This document shows, in pieces, positions 11,759-26,417 of a stretch of DNA of 64,000 nt. The stretch covers positions 64,001-128,000 of the forward strand of contig CAVUHW010000010.1 of NCBI GenBank assembly GCA_963741205.1, in the 5' to 3' direction. The stretch is from Nitrospirota bacterium (lineage in GTDB: Bacteria > Nitrospirota > UBA9217). The translations under genes were made by a program, and so were the position numbers. Under the pieces are notes generated by a model. It saw only the letters and a program-made list of their open reading frames with translations. It did no database searches and was not told the origin of the DNA. Positions within the stretch are counted from its first letter, which is position 1, and every line of letters starts with the position of its first letter.

Positions 11759-11880
11759 TCTCCGAGTGACGTTCGTATGAAAAAAACGGACAACAAGGCA
11801 TCGGTCATCTCGCAAGAATGAGTCCAACTGCGCTGACATCCTGATGAAAATAACAAGAAATGTCAAGGGGGACATACACG

Positions 11881-12781
11881 ATGGAAAACAGAAAAATCAG
11901 GAAAGTATTCAAGAGCAAGCCTACTCTCGAAGGAGCGGGAGTCCATCTCAGACGGGTATTCGGAAACAGCGAGGTCCCGCTGTTCGATCCATTCCTGATG
12001 CTCGACGATTTCCGCAATACCGACCCCTATCAGTATATCAAGGGGTTTCCCTGGCACCCCCATCGAGGCATCGAGACGATCACGTACGTGCTCAAGGGCG
12101 ACGTGGAGCACGGCGACAGCATGGGCAACAAGGGCGTTATCACGTCGGGAGACATGCAGTGGATGACCGCGGGAAGTGGCATCATCCACCAGGAGATGCC
12201 GCAGGGAGACGACAACGGGGTCATGGAGGGATTTCAGCTCTGGGCCAACCTCCCAAAAGCCGACAAGATGATGGACACCCCGGTACCGCGATATCAAAAG
12301 CTCGCAGGTGCCGGAAGTTGTGACGAAGAGCGGCGCGAAGATCAAGGTCATCTGCGGGACCGTGGAGGGCAGGCAGGGGCCGGTCAGGGACATCGTCATC
12401 GATCCCGAATATCTCGACGTTTCCCTCCCGGCCCTTTCCGAGTTTGTCCATCAGACCCCGCGCGGCCACACGGTCTTTGCCTATGTCATCGGGGGAAAGG
12501 GAGTCTTCTGCAATGAGAAGAACCCCTTCGCCTACGATGCCCTAGGGGAGAACTATTTCGACATGAAGCGCGATCCCTACATCCACAACGGGACGGCCGT
12601 GCTCTTCGGCGACGGCGATCAGGTGACGGTCTCGGCCCAGGGCGAACCCGTCCGCTTTCTGCTCATATCCGGCAAGCCAATCGGCGAGCCCGTGGCCTGG
12701 TACGGTCCGATCGTGATGAATACGGAGGAGGAACTGGAAGTCGCGTTTGAAGAGTATCAGAACGGTACGTTCATTAAGTAA
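11881..12781 (+). CDS. Pirin family protein (frameshift near 12280)
   Basis: DPFLMLD, GFPWHPHRGIETITY, MTAGSGIIHQE and GPIVMN across two frames. Confidence 0.9.
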
Positions 12782-13963: not shown

Positions 13964-14033
13964 TGAAACTCCCGTGATAATCATTCTGTATCTGTTGACG
14001 TTGCGCTTATCCGTAAAACCCACACTTCATGTC
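13964..14033 (+). repeat. Island repeat unit; 5' exon of intron A
   Basis: TGAAAC-TCCCGTGATAA-TCATTCTGTA-TCTGTTGA...ACTTCATGTC; joins TAAC of the 20579 unit once the intron is removed. Confidence 0.6.
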
Positions 14034-14355
14034 GTCGCGCCAGGTCAAGCCTGGGAAAGGTGGTGGACCAGAAGCCGAAACCTTTCGTCGTGATTCTGTA
14101 GGTAATCAATCCTACCTGGTAAAGCCTGGTCAGCAGCCAGAAGCGAGTCTTGCATGCGCCTAGGTGACTATGTGTGTGAAGCGTAGACAGCTACTGCAAA
14201 AGCCGTGTGATTGAGCCCCGAAATAGCCTCGTGGGAGCTTTCGCCCTCGACATAGCGGGAGCAGCATCGATCGTGCAGTATTGACCTTGCACGACCGATC
14301 CTACCGGGGTCAGAGAGCAGGGCATATGCAGAAGAGGATCACCCAGGAACCTGGG

Positions 14356-16291
14356 GAAAGCGCCGGGATAAACCGGCATAGAGTAGGGAATGAAAGAGTC
14401 CTACGTGAAAGGATGAGCTGATCCATCACGGCCCCGAGTCATGCGCGGGCGGTCGCGAGGCTGCACGTGAAGCGTTGACAGGGGAAGCATAGGCCAGCCA
14501 ATGAGCTCCGAAATCACCCCTTCGGGGTGCCGACCACGTCCCAGGAACGGGAAGGCAACATGGATAACGGCGATAAACAGCCAGTCGTAGTCCGGCCCCG
14601 CGGAGTCTGAGACCCTGTGCATGTGCTTACACTCTATGTTCGAGAACCGGGAGAGCTCAGCAGTTCCTGCCGTTAAATCACATGGCGGCAGGACGGCAAG
14701 GGAAGGCCAGTGGCCGTAATCCTTGCATGCACGCTGCTGAGCAGTCTGACATCGGCGTACTACCGAAGAAGGGGCCGAACAAAATGGTGTGCTCCCATGC
14801 CATGGCGGAGGTTCTGGAGGGAAGGCTGATGACCAAGGGGAAATTCTGAAGAGTCGTCTGCGACCTGTACGCGGAGACAGGAGGAAGCATTGAACGGACT
14901 TGACAGGATACGTGAGGCAGCGGTAAGGGACAAGAAACTTCGGTTCACCAATTTGATGCATCATATCACGGATGAAATGCTCCGAGATGCCTACTCTGCG
15001 CTCAAGCGCAACGCGGCATGCCGGAGTAGACGATATGACATGGCATGAGTATGGTGAGCGCCTGGAGAGCCGGATAGCGGATCTCCATGGCCGTGTGCAG
15101 AGTGGCAGGTATCCGGGCGAAGCCCTCGAAACGGGTTTGGATACCGAAACCGGACGGTCGTCAACGGCCGATCGGCATTGCCGTGCTGGAAGATAAGATA
15201 CGTTGAACAGGCGGTGGTATGGGTACTCAATCAGATCTATGAGCAGGACTTCCTCGGTTTCAGCTACGGATTTCGACCTGAACGCAGCCAACATAACGCG
15301 TTGGATGCAATCTGGGTCGGCATCAAGCAACGGAAGGTAAAATGGGTGCTGGATGCCGACATCAAGAGCTTTTTCGACACGATAAATCATGCGTGGCTGA
15401 TGAAGTTCCTAGAGCATCGCATCGCAGACCCTCGGATGCTCCGCCTGATCCGGAAGTGGCTCAGAGCCGGGGTATCAGAGGATGGCAAGTGGTCAAGAAC
15501 AGAAGTGGGCACGCCGCAAGGGTCGGTGATATCGCCTTTGCTCAGCAACATCTACCTGCATTATGTTCTTGACGAGTGGGTACAATCTTGGCGAAAGAAC
15601 GAGGCGCACGGTGAAATGATCATCGTGCGCTACGCGGATGACTTCGTCATGGGTTTTCAGCACCTGCATGAAGCGAAACGATTTCTTGAGGAAATGAAGG
15701 AGCGATTTGCCCAATACGGCCTGGAAATCCATAGTGAAAAGACCCGACTCATCGAGTTCGGACGATTTGCGGAATCAAATCGTACTGAGCGAGGAGAGAA
15801 AAAGCCTGAAACATTTGACTTTCTTGGGTTCACGCACATTTGCAGCCGAACCCTCAAGGGCAATCATTTCACGATTCATCGTAAGACAATCGCCAAGCGT
15901 CTTCGGGCAAAGCTCAAAGAAGTGAGGGAAGAGGTCATACGCAGACGGCATGAGCCAGTACCGGTACTTGGTAAATGGCTTCGTTCAGTCGTGCAAGGTC
16001 ACCTCAACTACTTTGCGGTGCCCGGCAACACAACGGCAATTAAGGCGTTCCGCAGGGAAATCAACAAGGCATGGCTATACGCGTTGAGGCAACGCAGCCA
16101 GAAGTCCAGTTATCTACCGTGGGACCGAATCAAACTCTTAATTGCGACGTGGATACCTACAGCCATAATACTGCACCCGTACCCAAGCCAGAGGCTTCGC
16201 GTGAACTACCCGAGGTAAGAGCCGTGTGAAGTAATACTTCTCGCACGGATCCGTGCGGGGGGCGTCTGGCAACGGACGTCCCTACCGCGAT
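14356..16291 (+). mobile_element. Group II intron B nested in domain I of intron A
   Basis: Splits A's GGAACCTGGG|AGGTC motif; EBS1 CCCAGG (14540-14545) complementary to CCTGGG (14350-14355); D5 GAGCCGTGTGAA..CACGGATC; ends CTACCGCGAT. Confidence 0.9.
14829..16218 (+). CDS. Group II intron RT/maturase of intron B (several 5' frameshifts, no En domain)
   Basis: FSYGFRP, DADIKSFFDTI, GTPQGS.ISP and VRYADDF; maturase X domain. Confidence 0.88.
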
Positions 16292-16562
16292 AGGTCTTGT
16301 TACTCCGTTTCTAAATGCCGGTGGGGATGACGGAACGAATAACTCCAGGCCTCAAGCGTCTGCGCAGAGATGTTCGAGGAGGTGCGTAATGGCACGAAAC
16401 AAAACGATCAGCGCGAGAAACGGTATCGCCAACTGAAGGAAACGAAAGGCGGCGAGATGGGAAGCAAGACGTCGTAGCGCCTTCATAGTACCGATGAGGC
16501 AGGGGAACGAATCCAATCGGACCCTGCGGAGGTAAGGGGGGCGTCATGTTGTAGAACCGTTG

Positions 16563-17093
16563 ATGGGAAAGACAGAGGATGCGATGGAATCCGGAAATAC
16601 AGTCTACACGAAACAGCAACGGATAGCAGAACTCGCGAGGATTCACCCTGATGTAAGTTTCACGTCTCTCGCCCACCACATTGATTTAGTGTGGCTCTAT
16701 GAAGCATTCGGTCGAACGCGGAAGGACGGAGCGACGGGCATAGACAACGTGACAGCAGAGGAGTACGAGCAAGAGTTAAACACGAATCTGCGATCACTGT
16801 TGGAACGCGCCAAATCGGGGAAGTACTATGCGCCACCGGTACTACGGGCGCATATCCCGAAAGACCCGGCAAAGAAGGAAACCCGTCCTATCGGTATACC
16901 GACGTTCGAGGATAAGGTGCTTCAGAGGGCCTGGCAAATGGTGCTGGAGCCACTATATGAACAGGAATTTCTGGACTGCTCATACGGGTTCCGGACAGGG
17001 CGTTCCGCCCACGACGCGTTGCAATCGTTGTGGAAGCAGATGATGGATATAGGCGGATGCTGGATCATCGACCTCGATATTCGGAAGTTTTTC
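16563..17093 (+). CDS. RT/maturase of intron A, part 1 (RT0 to RT3)
   Basis: GATGIDN, RPIGIPTFEDK, CSYGFR and DLDIRKFF, then interrupted by GTGCG. Confidence 0.88.
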
Positions 17094-17749
17094 GTGCGCC
17101 AGGGTAAGCCCGGCGCTTTCAGCGGGTGCAATTCCCGCCCCGGCAAGGGGAATGAGCCGCCTCACCGGGAATCGAGTCTTGGGCTCATGAAGGCAACGAC
17201 ATGAGTTAAGCGTAGACAGAGCGATGTCCAGGCCGTAACGCAAGTGAAGCGATAGAGCCTCGTGATACATCCGGAGGCCGACAGGGTCGAAAACCTGGAA
17301 GGCTACAGTAGGCGACGAAAAAGGGCGATGGTCGTTGGAGACTCCGGCGGGGTCTGAGAGCACGGCATGGGCAGAAACGGAAGCGTCATGGAACCTGGGA
17401 GATCCACCGCCGTCTCGGTCTGGCGTACAGACCGAGTATGTCTACCGAAAGGACCATCCTGAGGGAGAGAAACGCGACGGTGGAAGTCGGACCGCTGATA
17501 GTACTCGGAGTGCGGGAAAGCCGCATACAGGGGGAAGCGGCGGGGCAGGTTGAGTTGCTGGTCCGGGGAAACATTACCTACACTCAGAGGTAGGAGCACA
17601 ATGTCTACACAACCGGATCAGATCGATGGGTATGACGTTCACCGAACGAGTGCAACCTGGGGAGCCCGTTGCGGGAAATTCGCACGGCGGGTTCTGCGAG
17701 GGGGGACAGGCACAAGAGTACAATACTCAAGGCCTGTCCCTACCCCACC
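17094..17749 (+). mobile_element. ORF-less group II intron C
   Basis: GTGCGCC start; near-identical to intron D RNA; D4 reduced to a remnant (MSTQPDQI); D5 GAGCCCGTTGCGGGAAA; ends CCCACC. Confidence 0.9.
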
Positions 17750-19676
17750 GTGCGCCAGGGTAAGCCCGGCGCTTTCAGCGGGTGCAATTCCCGCCCCGGC
17801 AAGGGGAATGAGCCGCCTCACCGGGAATCGAGTCTTGGGCTCATGAAGGCAACGACATGAGTTAAGCGTAGACAGAGCGATGTCCAGGCCGTAACGCAAG
17901 TGAAGCGATAGAGCCTCGTGATACATCCGGAGGCCGACAGGGTCGAAAACCTGGAAGGCTACAGTAGGCGACCGTAACAGGCGATGGTCGTTGGAGACTC
18001 CGGCGGGGTCTGAGAGCACGGCATGGGCAGAAATGGAAGCGTCATGGAACCTGGGAGATCCATCGCCGTCTCGGTCTGGTTGTCACAGACCGAGTATATC
18101 TACCGAAAGGACCATCCTGAGGGAGATAAACGCGACGGTGGAAGTCGGACCCGCTGATAGTACTCGGAGTGCGGGAAAGCCGCATACAGGGGGAAGCAGT
18201 GGGGCAGGTTGAGTTGCTGGTCCAGGGAAACATTCCCTTCACGCAGAGGTAGGAACCGAATGTCCACACAACTGGATCAGATCAAGGGGAAGGCAAAGTC
18301 GGACCCGAAGCTACGCTTCACATCACTGGCGCACCTGCTCACTCCAGCGTTTCTTAGGGAGACATGGAAACAGATGAACCGGCGTGGGGCGAGCGGAATC
18401 GATGGCGAGACGACGAAGGAGTTTGGGCAAGACCTGGACGCACGGGTTCAATCTCTGAGCGAACGCTTGAAGCAAGGGGCCTACAAGGCTCCACCGGTAC
18501 GCCGAGTGGAAATCCCCAAAGGACCTGGCAGGGAAGGGACAAGACCGCTCGGGATTCCGACGGTCGAAGACCGTCTGCTGCAAAGAGCGGTAGCTCGGAT
18601 ATTGGAAGCGGTGTTCGAGGCGGATTTCTTGGACTGCTCATATGGATTTCGGCCGGGGCGCAATCCCCACGATGCCCTGCGGACATTGCGCACGATCATC
18701 GTCACGAAGAAGGTAGGACACTTGTTCGAAGCTGATATCCGGGGATACTTCAACCACATCCAGCATGAATGGCTGCAAAAGATGGTTGCTCATCGAATTG
18801 CGGACCCGGTCATCCTGCGCCTGATTGGCAAATGGCTGAAAGCGGGCTACATGATGGGAGGAGTCGTTACGCGAACCGAGGAAGGATCGCCACAAGGCGG
18901 GCCGATCAGCCCGATCTTGGCTAACATCTACCTGCACTACGTGCTTGATCTCTGGTTTGAAAAGAAGGTCAAGCCGATGTGCCAGGGTGAGGCGTATCTG
19001 ACGAGATTTGCGGATGATTTTGTGGTGAACTTTCAATATGGCAGAGATGCGGAAGGGTTCAGGAACGAGCCTGACGGATCGATTCGAGAAATTCGGGCTG
19101 GAATTGGCGGAAGAAAAGACGCGGCTGCTGCGCTTCGGACGATTCGTACGTGCGGACCTCGCAAAGACCGGCGATAAGCCGGATACGTTTGACTTTCTTG
19201 GCTTCAAGCATGTCTGTGGTATAGACCAAGGTGGGAAGTTTGCCTTGGTGCGGATTCCGTGCGTCAAAAGCTGCCGAAAGTTCTTGGCCAAGACCAAGGA
19301 ATGGCTCAAGGGGCATATACATTGGAAGCGGCGTGACCAGCAAAGTCAGTTGAAGATGATGCTGCACGGCTTCTACCAATACTTTGGACTGCATCACTGC
19401 AAGCCGAAACTCGACATGGTACGCAGCGCAGTACAGCTCCAATGGATTCGGACGCTACGGAGAAAGAGCCAACGTCACCGACTATACTGGTGCTACCTTA
19501 ATAGCCGAGACTGGTTCAAATTACCGTATGCGGTATCAACACGCCACGCGACGGTTTGACTTTCATTCATCCATTGAGTGCAATCTGGGGAGCCCGTTGC
19601 GGGAAAGCCGCACGGCGGGTTCTGCGAGGGGGGACAGGCACAAGAGGACAACACTCAAGGTCTGTCTCTACCCACC
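17750..19676 (+). mobile_element. Group II intron D, in tandem directly after C
   Basis: GTGCGCC start, full RT ORF, D5 at ~19590, ends CCCACC; A's ORF resumes afterwards. Confidence 0.9.
18260..19559 (+). CDS. RT/maturase of intron D (frameshift near 19070)
   Basis: GASGIDG, RPLGIPTVEDR, DIRGYFNHI, GSPQGGPISP and RFADDF. Confidence 0.88.
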
Positions 19677-20503
19677 ATACGATGGTCCATAAACACATCA
19701 GGGAGATACTCAAGAGGCGGGTGAGTGACGGAGTAATAACGAGACTCATAGATAAGTGGTTGAAGGCCGGTGTATGGGAGGCAGGAAACATCAGTTACCC
19801 GGAAAAGGGTACTCCTCAAGGCGGCGTGATATCCCCCATGCTGAGTAATATTTATCTTCATGAGGTACTGGACCTGTGGTTTGAGAAGGAAGTAAAACCA
19901 CGCCTCCGCGGCAAAGCGTTTCTGATTCGGTATGCCGATGATGCTGTGTTGGGATTTGCAACCGAAGACGATGCCCGGAGAGTAATGGAAGTGCTTCCGA
20001 AGCGGTTTGCCCGATATGGCTTGACGATCCACCCGGAGAAGACCCGTGTGGTGAGGTTCGTAAAGCCGGAAGACATCAACTCGGGGGGCCACAGCCAGGA
20101 CAAGGATAACACGTTCAACTTTCTAGGATTCACTCACTACTGGGCAAAATCCCGTAAAGGTACAGCGGTGATCAAGCGAAGTACCGAGAAGAGCCGGTTC
20201 ATGCGAGCGCTTATGAAGATTAAGGAGTGGTGCAGAACCAATCGGCACAACCCACTGAAGGAGCAGCATAAGACGCTGAACCAGAAACTTCGAGGCCACT
20301 ACGCCTATTACGGGATCAGAGGCAACAGCCAGGCATTGGGGCACTTCTACCACAAGGTGAGACGGCTCTGGCGCAAATGGCTACAGCGAAGGTCGTGCGA
20401 TGGTAGTATCCCGTGGGATAACTTCGCACTACTTGAAAAGGTCTATCCACTTGCGCCAGCGAGAATCGTTCACTCCGCATACTTACGCAAAGCTACAGCA
20501 TGA
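19677..20503 (+). CDS. RT/maturase of intron A, part 2 (RT3 to X domain)
   Basis: TMVH..., GTPQGGVISP, IRYADDA, FNFLGF and GHYAYY; continues DIRKFF(D)T from part 1. Confidence 0.88.
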
Positions 20504-20578
20504 AGAACCGAATGCGTTAATCGCGCACGTTCGGGTCTGTGGGGGGCTGGGGCAGGTGACTGCCCTGGCCTACCTGGC

Positions 20579-24148: not shown

Positions 24149-25205
24149 ATGGAAAGCCTAATCGTTGGCGTCGATGTTTCCAAGGAGTCCTTTTCTACGG
24201 CCGGCCTTGACGGCAAAGGGACGCGTTGTTTCTCTGAAGAATACACCATGGACAGTGATGGGTTTTCGAAGTTCCTGGCCATGATAATAGCACAACGGCC
24301 GGATGTCTCCCATGTCACTGTCGGCATGGAGTCAACTGGCATCTACCACCTCAATCTCTTTTCTTATCTCACAGCACAAGGCATCCATGCCGTGGTCATT
24401 AATCCGCTGTTGATCGCGAACTTTGCCAAACTGTCACTCCGGAAGACCAAGACCGACAAAAAAGATGCCATGACGATCGCCCAGTTCCTGCTGGCACACT
24501 TGGACAAGATCTCACAGATGTCAATCAGCCAGGACATGCAGGATATGCGCGATCTCGCCCGGGAGCGAGAGTCCTTGAGCCATTTGATTTCCGCGACTAA
24601 GACCGAGATCAAGGGGGTGTTGCAAACGACCTTTCCTGAGCTTGAGCGCCTTTGCAATGTCTTTACGGGCATCATGCTTGCCTTTTTGAAGGAGTTTCCC
24701 TCCGCTCGCTTGATCAATATGGCTAAGCCGCAGGCAATAGCAAACGCCATGGAACCACGCAGTGCAGGGAGCAGGATATCTACCTTTACTGCTGACGATG
24801 TAATCAAGCTGGCCAAAAATTCGGTTGGGATGGTTAGCCCGGCCAAAGAAACCATCCTGCGGGGCAAAATATCGACGCTGCTCCATCTGGAAGATCGTCG
24901 GGACGAATTGACGGCCATGCTCACGGATTACTGCAACTCCCTGATGGTGGAAGACCTGGCAATAGTAACATCCGTGAAAGGCATCAGCAGCGGGACCGGG
25001 ACCACTTTCCTGTCCGAGATAGGGAGCATCGAGAACTACGGCACGCACAAGAACCTGATTGCATACACAGGGGTTGATCCAACGGTGTATCAATCAGGCA
25101 AGTATCAGGGGGCAAGTAAGATCTCGAAGAGAGGAAATAAGCATCTTAGGCGAGTGCTATGGCTTATGACGGCGAGTGTGATCATGCATAACAAAAACTT
25201 CCGAG
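24149..25205 (+). CDS. IS110 transposase/recombinase (C-terminus truncated)
   Basis: VGVDVSK, MESTG, KTDKKDA and YQSG..ISKRGN motifs. Confidence 0.92.
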
Positions 25206-25265
25206 TAAGCCTCCCCCGATTTGATGGACACTCCGAGTAGTTGTATAATCTGAGAGGAGGCGTCT

Positions 25266-25613: not shown

Positions 25614-26417
25614 ATGTGCAAGGTATTGGGAGTCTCACGAAGTGGTTATTATGCGTGGAGGAGACGAAAACCTGGCAAGCGCTGGAACGAGAACGAGCTG
25701 CTTCTGGACCGTATTCAAGAGATCTACCAGAAGAACAGACGGGTTTACGGCAGCCCGCGGATAACTGAAGAGCTCCGTGAGCAAGGCAGCAGATGCGGAA
25801 AGAACCGGATCGCCAGGATCATGAAAGATAACGGAATTCGGGCAGAGGTGAAGAGGAGGTTCAGGAAGACCACAGATTCAAGGCATAACTACGCATTGGC
25901 CGCCAATTTACTGATTCAAGACGGCTATAAAGGCCCGCTATGGGCATCTGATATTACGTTTGTCCCGACCAGTGAGGGATGGCTCTATGTATCAGCGGTC
26001 ATGAGCGTGCAGTCCAGAAAGATCATCGGGTTGTCCATGAAGGACCAGCTGACGGAGGAGCTGGCAGCTACAGCACTGAAGCAGGCCGTGACCAGGGAGA
26101 AGCCGCCAGAGGGCTTGATCCATCATTCTGATCGCGGCAGGCAATATGCGAGTTATGGATATCAGGCGATCCTGAGACGATACGGCATAACGCCCAGCAT
26201 GAGCAGAAAAGGCAATTGCTATGATAACGCCTATATGGAGTCGTTCTTCAGCACGCTAAAACGAGAGCTGGTCCACGGTGAACGGTATCGAACGCGGGAA
26301 GAAGCGAGATTAAGTATCTTTGAGTATGTGGAAGTGTTTTATAATCGCATCAGGAAACACTCGGGATTGGGATATAAGAGCCCAGAGCAGTACGAAAAGA
26401 GCCTAAAAGAAACTTAA
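25614..26417 (+). CDS. IS3 OrfB (DDE integrase core)
   Basis: WASDIT, HHSDRGRQY and DNAYMESFF. Confidence 0.92.
   Translation: MCKVLGVSRSGYYAWRRRKPGKRWNENELLLDRIQEIYQKNRRVYGSPRITEELREQGSRCGKNRIARIMKDNGIRAEVKRRFRKTTDSRHNYALAANLLIQDGYKGPLWASDITFVPTSEGWLYVSAVMSVQSRKIIGLSMKDQLTEELAATALKQAVTREKPPEGLIHHSDRGRQYASYGYQAILRRYGITPSMSRKGNCYDNAYMESFFSTLKRELVHGERYRTREEARLSIFEYVEVFYNRIRKHSGLGYKSPEQYEKSLKET

Follow-up and report, generated by a model that had tools for sequence, protein, structure and literature searches.

A nest of four group II introns in a Nitrospirota bacterium, probably built by successive homing at a non-coding site

Nests of group II introns have reportedly been known since 2003, when those of Methanosarcina acetivorans are said to have been described by Dai and Zimmerly (RNA 9:14). 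Such a nest raises the question of whether its members leave the RNA in an ordered splicing cascade or have collected in one another as in a sink. We address this question for a 6.5-kb locus of a Nitrospirota bacterium (GTDB lineage UBA9217; GenBank assembly GCA_963741205.1), which lies on the forward strand of a 64,000-nucleotide stretch of contig CAVUHW010000010.1 (positions 64,001 to 128,000), hereafter called the window. A first-pass annotation had recognised four group II introns at 14034-20578 of this window, with an outer intron, A, holding B in its ribozyme and C and D in its reverse transcriptase (RT) gene. We find that the locus is probably a stack of four mobile introns of one ribozyme type (RF02005), which was built by successive site-specific retrohoming at a non-coding site.

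The four introns are recovered on the plus strand with Rfam ribozyme models, at the places where they had been reported (Table 1). The Infernal-type model of domains I to IV (RF02005, group-II-D1D4-6; gathering score 49 bits) and that of domains V and VI (RF00029, Intron_gpII; gathering score 40 bits) match four times each. The RF00029 matches of C and D reach the gathering score; those of B and A lie below it, with E-values of 4e-4 and 1.2e-3, respectively, in an 8-kb search. Thus, all four sets of domains V and VI noted by the first-pass annotation are found, two of them at sub-threshold scores. The placement of C and D (17094-19676) inside the RT gene of A also holds and can be refined, as the two introns follow one another head to tail with zero bases between them, both at the codon that we write FF/D, a slash marking the point of insertion here and below.

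Table 1. Segments of the nested locus in window coordinates, with the model matches that define them
Feature	Position	Strand	Content	Support
IBS1 of intron A	14029-14033	+	AUGUC, in the non-coding 5' flank	Pairs with the EBS1 loop of A
Intron A, 5' segment	14034-14355	+	Domain I up to its closing strand; 5' end GUCGCG	RF02005 at 14106-14319, 141 bits; homology to the A copy of sister species G001
Intron B	14356-16291	+	1936 nt, full length; RT remnants at 14887-16218	RF02005 at 14395-14615, 171 bits; RF00029 at 16217-16291, 35.3 bits
Intron A, middle segment	16292-17093	+	Domains II-III, DIVa, and the N-terminal 186 codons of the RT (16536/16563-17093), ending ...DIRKFF	TIGR04416 5-134
Intron C	17094-17749	+	656 nt; no open reading frame; domains I-III and V/VI retained	RF02005 at 17129-17362, 124.5 bits; RF00029 at 17660-17748, 45.4 bits
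Intron D	17750-19676	+	1927 nt, full length; RT at 18260-19559	RF02005 at 17785-18018, 124.2 bits; RF00029 at 19588-19676, 40.0 bits
Intron A, 3' segment	19677-20578	+	C-terminal part of the RT (19679-20503, TMVH... to stop); domains V/VI (20503-20578)	TIGR04416 138-352; Pfam GIIM; RF00029 at 20503-20578, 33.2 bits

The outer intron can be delimited by comparison with relatives that lack the inner ones. A DNA search of 40 related genomes showed that a sister species has a homologue of A without interruption (G001:C1:834548-836581, 2029 nt, about 90% identity); one further copy was found in the same genome and one in G002. Homology of the uninterrupted copy to the window begins exactly at 14034 in a pairwise alignment, the 5' segment of A being 91% identical to G001:C1:834548-834869. 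The consensus 5' end of group II introns is GUGYG; C and D begin with GUGCG, and A with GUCGCG in four of four copies. All four copies of A end in ...CCTACCTGGC followed by TA, and the 3' end of A is therefore certain only to within about 2 nt. The G001 copy is contiguous both at the site of B (GGAACCTGGG/AGATC) and at that of C and D (TTTTTCGATACG, encoding F-F-D-T), and removal of the inner introns from the window leaves an outer sequence contiguous with it at both sites, except for one G that is missing at the A-C junction. The restored junctions given by the first-pass annotation, GGAACCTGGG-AGGTC and DIRKFF-x-TMVH, are accordingly right, with x identified as Asp by comparison with the G001 copy.

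The 5' boundaries are fixed by pairings between exon-binding site 1 (EBS1) and intron-binding site 1 (IBS1), together with their covariation in relatives. EBS1 is the loop of the second-to-last hairpin in the RF02005 match, and it is complementary to the bases just 5' of each intron. GACAU in A (14249-14253) pairs over 5 bp with AUGUC (14029-14033), and the G001 homologue has AGGAUG and CAUCCU at the same places; CCCAGG in B (14540-14545) pairs at 6/6 positions with CCUGGG (14350-14355), and the B lineage displays seven different EBS1/IBS1 pairs among 16 copies from 7 of the 64 genomes of the family. The EBS1 loop of C is GUCGAAAAC, whose (C)GAAAA pairs with UUUUC(G) of the RT gene of A over 5 bp, or 6 if the missing G is counted. 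Intron D makes the same pairing as C, but its two strands adjoin only once C has been removed. Relatives of D again covary, CGAA... loops occurring with ...TTCG exons and CAAA... loops with ...TTTG exons. The last hairpin of the RF02005 match, in which C and D differ (GACGAAAAAGGGC versus GACCGTAACAGGC), was first read as EBS1; it was dropped because A, B, the G001 copies and a B-type copy without an open reading frame (ORF), described below as B', all pair via the preceding hairpin. No EBS2/IBS2 or EBS3/IBS3 is named, the candidates suggested by complementarity lying in predicted stems or lacking covariation.

The site of B bears on how A could fold. The first-pass annotation had put B inside domain I of A; it does lie within that domain, however not deep in it but at its 3' base, adjoining domain II, a position for which there is moderate support. 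The insertion-site motif of A, GGAACCUGGGAG, stands about 30 nt past the end of the RF02005 match and directly 5' of a long hairpin, which we take as the probable domain II. The minimum-energy fold of the G001 copy pairs AACCUGG with CCAGGUU at positions 7-13, and D-type relatives that have the 5' end GCGUCAGG instead of GCGCCAGG carry CCUGAG instead of CCUGGG, which amounts to one compensatory change. The 5' bases that pair with this strand can also pair locally, which weakens its reading as the strand closing domain I. If the reading is correct, IBS1 of B would be that closing strand, and the splicing of B and the folding of A would compete for it.

The unusual 5' end of B, GAAAGCG, is shared by 14 of the 16 family copies (L105-L120; G000:C9:7310, minus strand), the other two reading AAAAGCG and GAAAACG; a separate relative of B in G004, outside these 16, starts with GUGCG. 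Since the EBS1-IBS1 pairings covary in the relatives, this 5' end is genuine for the lineage, and the occurrence at several sites of copies with intact 442-aa RTs suggests that it is functional. Two further B-type introns deserve mention. B' is an ORF-less relative of 664 nt (G000:C9:6647-7310, minus strand), 84% identical to B over the ribozyme and located at another site, with IBS1 AGUUCA and EBS1 UGAACU. L109 (G001:C1:964512) is a B-type intron located within the apparent domain I of a further intron of this type and preceded by ...GGGTGCAAGTCCACTATATGAGGATAAGCTGA/; intron-in-intron insertion thus takes a second form in the genus.

The tandem pair consists of an intron and its own reduced derivative, C being an ORF-less form of D from which about 1.29 kb of domain IV and ORF have been deleted. 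By blastn, C 1-537 aligns with D 1-540 at 95% identity and the last 98 nt of the alignment (C 555-652) at 93%. The first 223 nt of the two are identical, and all 26 mismatches and 3 gapped bases of the 537-nt segment fall in its remainder, where the difference is about 8%; such a mosaic would fit either gene conversion or collapse of a repeat during assembly. The 3' junction of D, CCCACC/ATACG, has the same form as in its relatives (CCCACC/AY). Because an occupied site retains IBS1 in its 5' exon, a second insertion at the upstream junction would be the simplest origin of the tandem.

The nest is real. It comes from a metagenome bin of 50 contigs with 84% completeness and 4.9% contamination, and one may ask whether the assembler made a false nest out of repeated intron copies that belong to different places or strains, an error to which the mosaic of C and D, if a repeat collapse, could point. 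Public sequencing runs, available to us as contigs only, hold a copy of D in another context (DNA run X1) and a naked A (DNA run X2). However, both ends of each insertion lie at the same base of the outer intron, beside a matching IBS1, which joins between repeats would not give; a single RT gene runs on from the 5' to the 3' flank of the C-D pair at the same codon; and a contig of X1 spans the 3' junction of B (16253-16514). A false join would also have to reproduce a placement that recurs in 21 of 27 loci elsewhere, as set out next, and we consider an assembly artefact highly improbable.

The FF/D codon is the habitual target of the D lineage. A scan of one genome per species with the RT of D returned 351 relatives, from which 80 loci were kept, mostly in Acidobacteriota bins and also in Paraburkholderia, Ralstonia, Bradyrhizobium and others. 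Fifty of these have a defined 5' end, and their flanks were compared with the RT of the G001 copy of A; several come from the same bins or genomes, and the counts are thus not of independent loci. The ribozyme 5' part is at least 85% identical to that of D in 27 of the 50, here called the FF/D group. Seventeen members of this group have an upstream RT match that ends exactly at residue 186, and in a further four the sole RT match lies downstream and begins at residue 188 or 191, such that 21 of 27 lie in the RT gene of another intron at the same codon as C and D. The copy of D in X1 is flanked by ...VDLEKFF/DRVNHDIL, as read from 30-letter loose ends, and thus occupies a different host RT. A sister group of 18 loci (69-73% RT identity) follows ...YLHY, the RT match ending at residue 248 in 15 of them and only a downstream RT match being present in two more. 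A third group of five loci follows ...LGGLHHQY; in the two loci tested, the interrupted gene encodes an integrase-core (rve_3) transposase.

The RTs encoded by these introns themselves lack the targets. Those of the FF/D lineage read YFN (AAC) at the motif: 32 loci have YFNH, all at least 75% identical to D, and they include every locus of the FF/D-homing lineage. Sister groups read YFT at this motif, most relatives of at most 52% identity keep FFD, and the introns that home to YLHY read YLHF in their own RTs. This pattern may reflect the avoidance of self-insertion, with one change per lineage. In the nest itself, reading by eye indicates that the RT gene of B retains an unoccupied target of the D lineage (TTTTTCG/AC, about 15371-15379) and that of D an unoccupied target of the sister lineage (CTGCACTACG/TG, about 18936-18947); consequently the nest still offers landing sites.

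These observations raise the tentative possibility, which we hold to be somewhat less probable than its denial, that the C/D lineage consists of hyperparasites that live almost only in the RT genes of other introns, at the Asp of D-I-x-x-F-F-D, are spread across phyla, and have their own RT protected by the Asn of YFN. If so, the sister lineages would do likewise, one at ...YLHY/ (its own RT reading YLHF) and another at an insertion sequence (IS) transposase, and the knock-out of host RTs could make these introns a natural check on how far introns spread, with nests as the visible result. The literature searches made here found no paper on a bacterial lineage that homes to the FF/D codon. Some D-type introns of other genomes (L033, L061-L063, L067, L068 and L072) measure 3.5-4.2 kb against the usual 1.9 kb or so and hence hold additional insertions; the RT match of L061-L063 first stops near residue 218-225, close to the YLHY site, and all seven may be deeper nests.

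For the RT genes of the nest, the TIGR04416 model (cut-off 300 bits) scores 136.5 and 195.1 bits with two pieces in A, 281.8 bits in B, and 277.5 and 58.4 bits with two pieces in D, each piece falling below the cut-off because the genes are split or frameshifted; C has no RT match and is ORF-less. The RTs of A, B and D share 39-47% amino-acid identity pairwise and end after the maturase domain, with no Pfam match to an endonuclease domain, in line with the earlier description of three distinct RTs without endonuclease. This lack fits the classes that are listed without such a domain in PMC3552965.

The RT of A is matched over model positions 5-134 before C and 138-352 after D, the ORF being interrupted at codon 187. 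Residues 1-186 of the 461-aa G001 protein align with the window at 92% identity and residues 188-461 at 90%, and the ratio of non-synonymous to synonymous substitution rates (dN/dS) against G001 is 0.14 for the N-terminal and 0.19 for the C-terminal part; from these ratios, the gene appears to have been under selection for most of its history, until recently. The C-D pair measures 2583 nt (3 x 861), yet the halves of this RT stand one frame apart, and the frame is not restored as assembled because of the G missing at the A-C junction (a -1 frameshift). The RT of B matches the model at 71-352 within a 346-aa ORF, and an intact 442-aa RT of G001 aligns with 14887-16215 at 72% identity; three frameshifts, near 15022, 15113 and 15197, read by eye from the sequence, cancel one another. 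The RT of D matches at 4-232 and 232-352 in two frames, with one extra base at 19066/19067. Thus, none of the three RT genes is intact as assembled.

Several observations bear on how far these frame breaks can be trusted. A pirin-like gene in the window (11860-12781) falls into two overlapping frames, having one base more than its G001 orthologue at about 12277, and is either a pseudogene or an assembly indel; the matches of other RT-like genes of the bin (contigs C14 and C45) are likewise spread over several frames. Over 14713-15242, a B-like contig of X1 shows 9 substitutions and exactly 3 gaps against the window, and the D contig of this run (99.9% identical, with other flanks) shows one substitution and one gap, at 19067, in 1657 nt; contigs of X1 and of the RNA run X20 both lack one base at 19067/19066. 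These gap stretches are where the RT frames of the window break, and the cause is either indel errors in the bin or decay of the nested copies. In 40 kb of G001 surrounding the pirin orthologue, that gene alone aligned with the window, which gave no indel rate.

An alternative is that the locus is a pure graveyard in which all four elements are dead relics, inactive both as homing site and as source of introns. Three RT genes broken as assembled, the multi-frame RT-like genes elsewhere in the bin and the absence of an ORF in C would be expected of such a relic. On the other hand, the near-identity of D to the X1 copy implies a recent insertion, the scores of the ribozyme cores are on a par with those of relatives, the RT genes of B and D retain the vacant targets described above, and the frameshifts may be errors. 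We therefore regard a graveyard as rather unlikely.

Two side observations concern the A lineage. Domain V of A (20506-20508) reads AAC where the Rfam consensus has AGC, at the position of the catalytic triad; the G001 homologue (L011) has the identical AAC sequence in its domain V, and the A lineage has moved to new sites. The second copy of A in G001:C1 (L012 1819-4062) bears a 2.2-kb insert in its RT gene at T-P-Q/G-G, which was first suspected to be an intron and is a serine-recombinase element, as it encodes a 555-aa large serine recombinase with Resolvase, Recombinase and Zn_ribbon_recom domains. The G002 copy of A (L013 1833-2185) has a 353-nt insert at the same T-P-Q/G-G point.

A further alternative is the ordered cascade. 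The first-pass annotation had reasoned that A can fold and make its maturase only after three inner splicing events, and for the RT of A this inner-first logic is sound, since its ORF is split at codon 187 and both C and D must leave first. A working cascade would remove B, C and D, with C before D because IBS1 of D is restored next to it only once C is gone, whereupon A would fold, its RT would be translated, and A would splice and move. All four ribozyme cores and their domain V/VI ends are recognisable, the EBS1-IBS1 pairs of A, B and C are intact, and purifying selection has acted on both halves of the RT of A. The frameshifts may be assembly errors, given the +1 change in the pirin-like gene and the X1 gaps at the RT frame breaks, and cleavage at the end of the IBS1 helix could let C leave UUUUUCG behind. 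A precedent exists in Trichodesmium erythraeum, where, according to Pfreundt & Hess 2015 (PMC4649490), inner-first sequential splicing of a multi-kilobase twintron has been shown in vivo.

Against such a cascade, the locus as assembled has no intact RT, and excision leaves the RT of A out of frame. A search upstream on the plus strand, a test of little power, found no promoter-like or terminator-like site. No open frame crossing the empty site of A exceeds 82 aa, the length of one on the minus strand, and hence apparently no host gene requires splicing. The public runs hold sequences in which inner introns are skipped: B is skipped exactly (14355 to 16292) in DNA runs X1 and X2, which belong to different studies, and in one RNA library (X19); C and D are skipped, the G being retained (17094 to 19677), in X2, whose pieces of A share about 99.7% identity with the window. 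As the skips are present in DNA runs, they are empty sites in other strains and not splice products; this includes the B-less joint of X19. The RNA runs X19 and X20 hold mostly relatives of 90-95% identity and were not taken as expression of this locus. We thus judge a working cascade unlikely. Between the cascade and the sink that the first-pass annotation had offered, the target use of the D lineage (21 of 27), the lack of a host frame, the frameshifts in the RTs, and the B-less and C-D-less forms in DNA together favour the sink, in the form of a nest of homing sites.

The stack would then have arisen as follows. A would have inserted first, guided by the pairing of GACAU with AUGUC. A D-type intron, whose EBS1 CGAAAA recognises UUUUCG/A, the habitual target of its lineage in many bacteria, would have homed into the RT gene of A just after the first base of the Asp codon in D-I-x-x-F-F-D, and a second copy would have entered at the upstream junction, where the occupied site had retained the IBS1 5' exon, giving the tandem. 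C would have lost its ORF and would now depend on an RT acting in trans, from D or another source. B, from a lineage that retargets freely through changes of EBS1, would have inserted after the CCUGGG that closes domain I of A. The outcome would be a nest serving as a safe homing site for introns rather than a host gene in need of splicing, in which production of the RT of A would need prior removal of C and D from the RNA, and normal closure of domain I would need B out first.

Several results weigh against this account and temper our confidence in it. The site of B is used by one of 16 B-type copies in the family, and a scan of metagenome contigs for the exact A-B junction gave zero matches; the insertion of B is accordingly a one-off retargeting, not habitual homing. 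Six of the 27 D-lineage relatives lie off the FF/D codon, five of them elsewhere and one (L084) at another site of an RT gene, and the loci counted are not independent, some genomes contributing several. Among the run pieces listed, none spans the A-C, C-D or D-A junction. A scan of metagenome contigs for the exact tandem junction, the end of D followed by the start of D, also gave zero matches, by which frequent reinsertion into occupied sites is not demonstrated; this result neither supports nor excludes reinsertion. Finally, relatives of C and D always have ...TTCG/GTGCG at the 5' junction; the window has a single G there, and clean retrohoming does not predict the missing one at the A-C junction.

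Comparison with known systems places the nest as a bacterial member of the Methanosarcina kind, built by homing. As described in the review PMC4424553, Methanosarcina acetivorans has up to five nested introns that arose by repeated site-specific homing into other introns, without coding exons, in what is termed a perpetual homing site. The nest described here shares with these the repeated homing into introns, in part into RT ORFs, the mixture of ORF-less and ORF-containing members, the lack of a coding exon and, probably, the role of a durable homing site. It differs in its bacterial host, in combining three RT lineages of one ribozyme type, in its tandem members, and in its targets, the FF/D codon of an RT and the closing strand of a domain I; these differences are drawn from descriptions of the Methanosarcina nests.

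A second parallel is offered by Thermosynechococcus elongatus, whose introns, according to Mohr, Ghanem & Lambowitz 2010 (PMC2882425), have evolved towards insertion at a conserved site, located either in an IS element or within another intron. Its twintrons, TeI3 (F3) in TeI4 (F1), likewise contain ORF-less inner introns that are mobilised by a related RT, mostly through EBS/IBS recognition. However, those insertions fall between the first and second ATG of the ORF, such that the RT can still be made, whereas here the RT is split in a motif of its catalytic domain; and by that account their nest is one level deep and their lineage confined to one genome, whereas the D lineage extends over several phyla. 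The Trichodesmium twintron mentioned above resides in a conserved host gene with a putatively functional mRNA, whereas the present nest has non-coding flanks and is known from DNA alone. What is newly added here is the FF/D target, the two sister targets, the target-free genes of the introns themselves, and a nest of three lineages with a tandem pair.

Nests of group II introns illustrate how selfish RNA elements can last without harming their host, each serving others as a landing site. The present locus points to an intron lineage, widespread in soil bacteria, with a fixed target in a catalytic-domain motif of the RTs of other introns and no such target in its own gene; should this prove true, it would provide a simple, plasmid-testable system for parasite-on-parasite dynamics and for target-site immunity in retroelements. 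The locus is also a warning for annotation, as pipelines miss the outer introns of such nests, according to PMC8919778.

Elsewhere in the window, two ORFs (24149-25240 and 25614-26417) resemble IS transposases by eye, and the region may be rich in mobile elements; a bacterial RNase P RNA of class A is encoded at 992-1363 (274.7 bits). A further group II intron at G000:C12:14313-16188 (minus strand) lies in a more GC-rich stretch and by eye interrupts a sensor histidine kinase gene near its phospho-acceptor box, with the flanks ...ERLRSA/ and /LLTSLSHDLRTPL.

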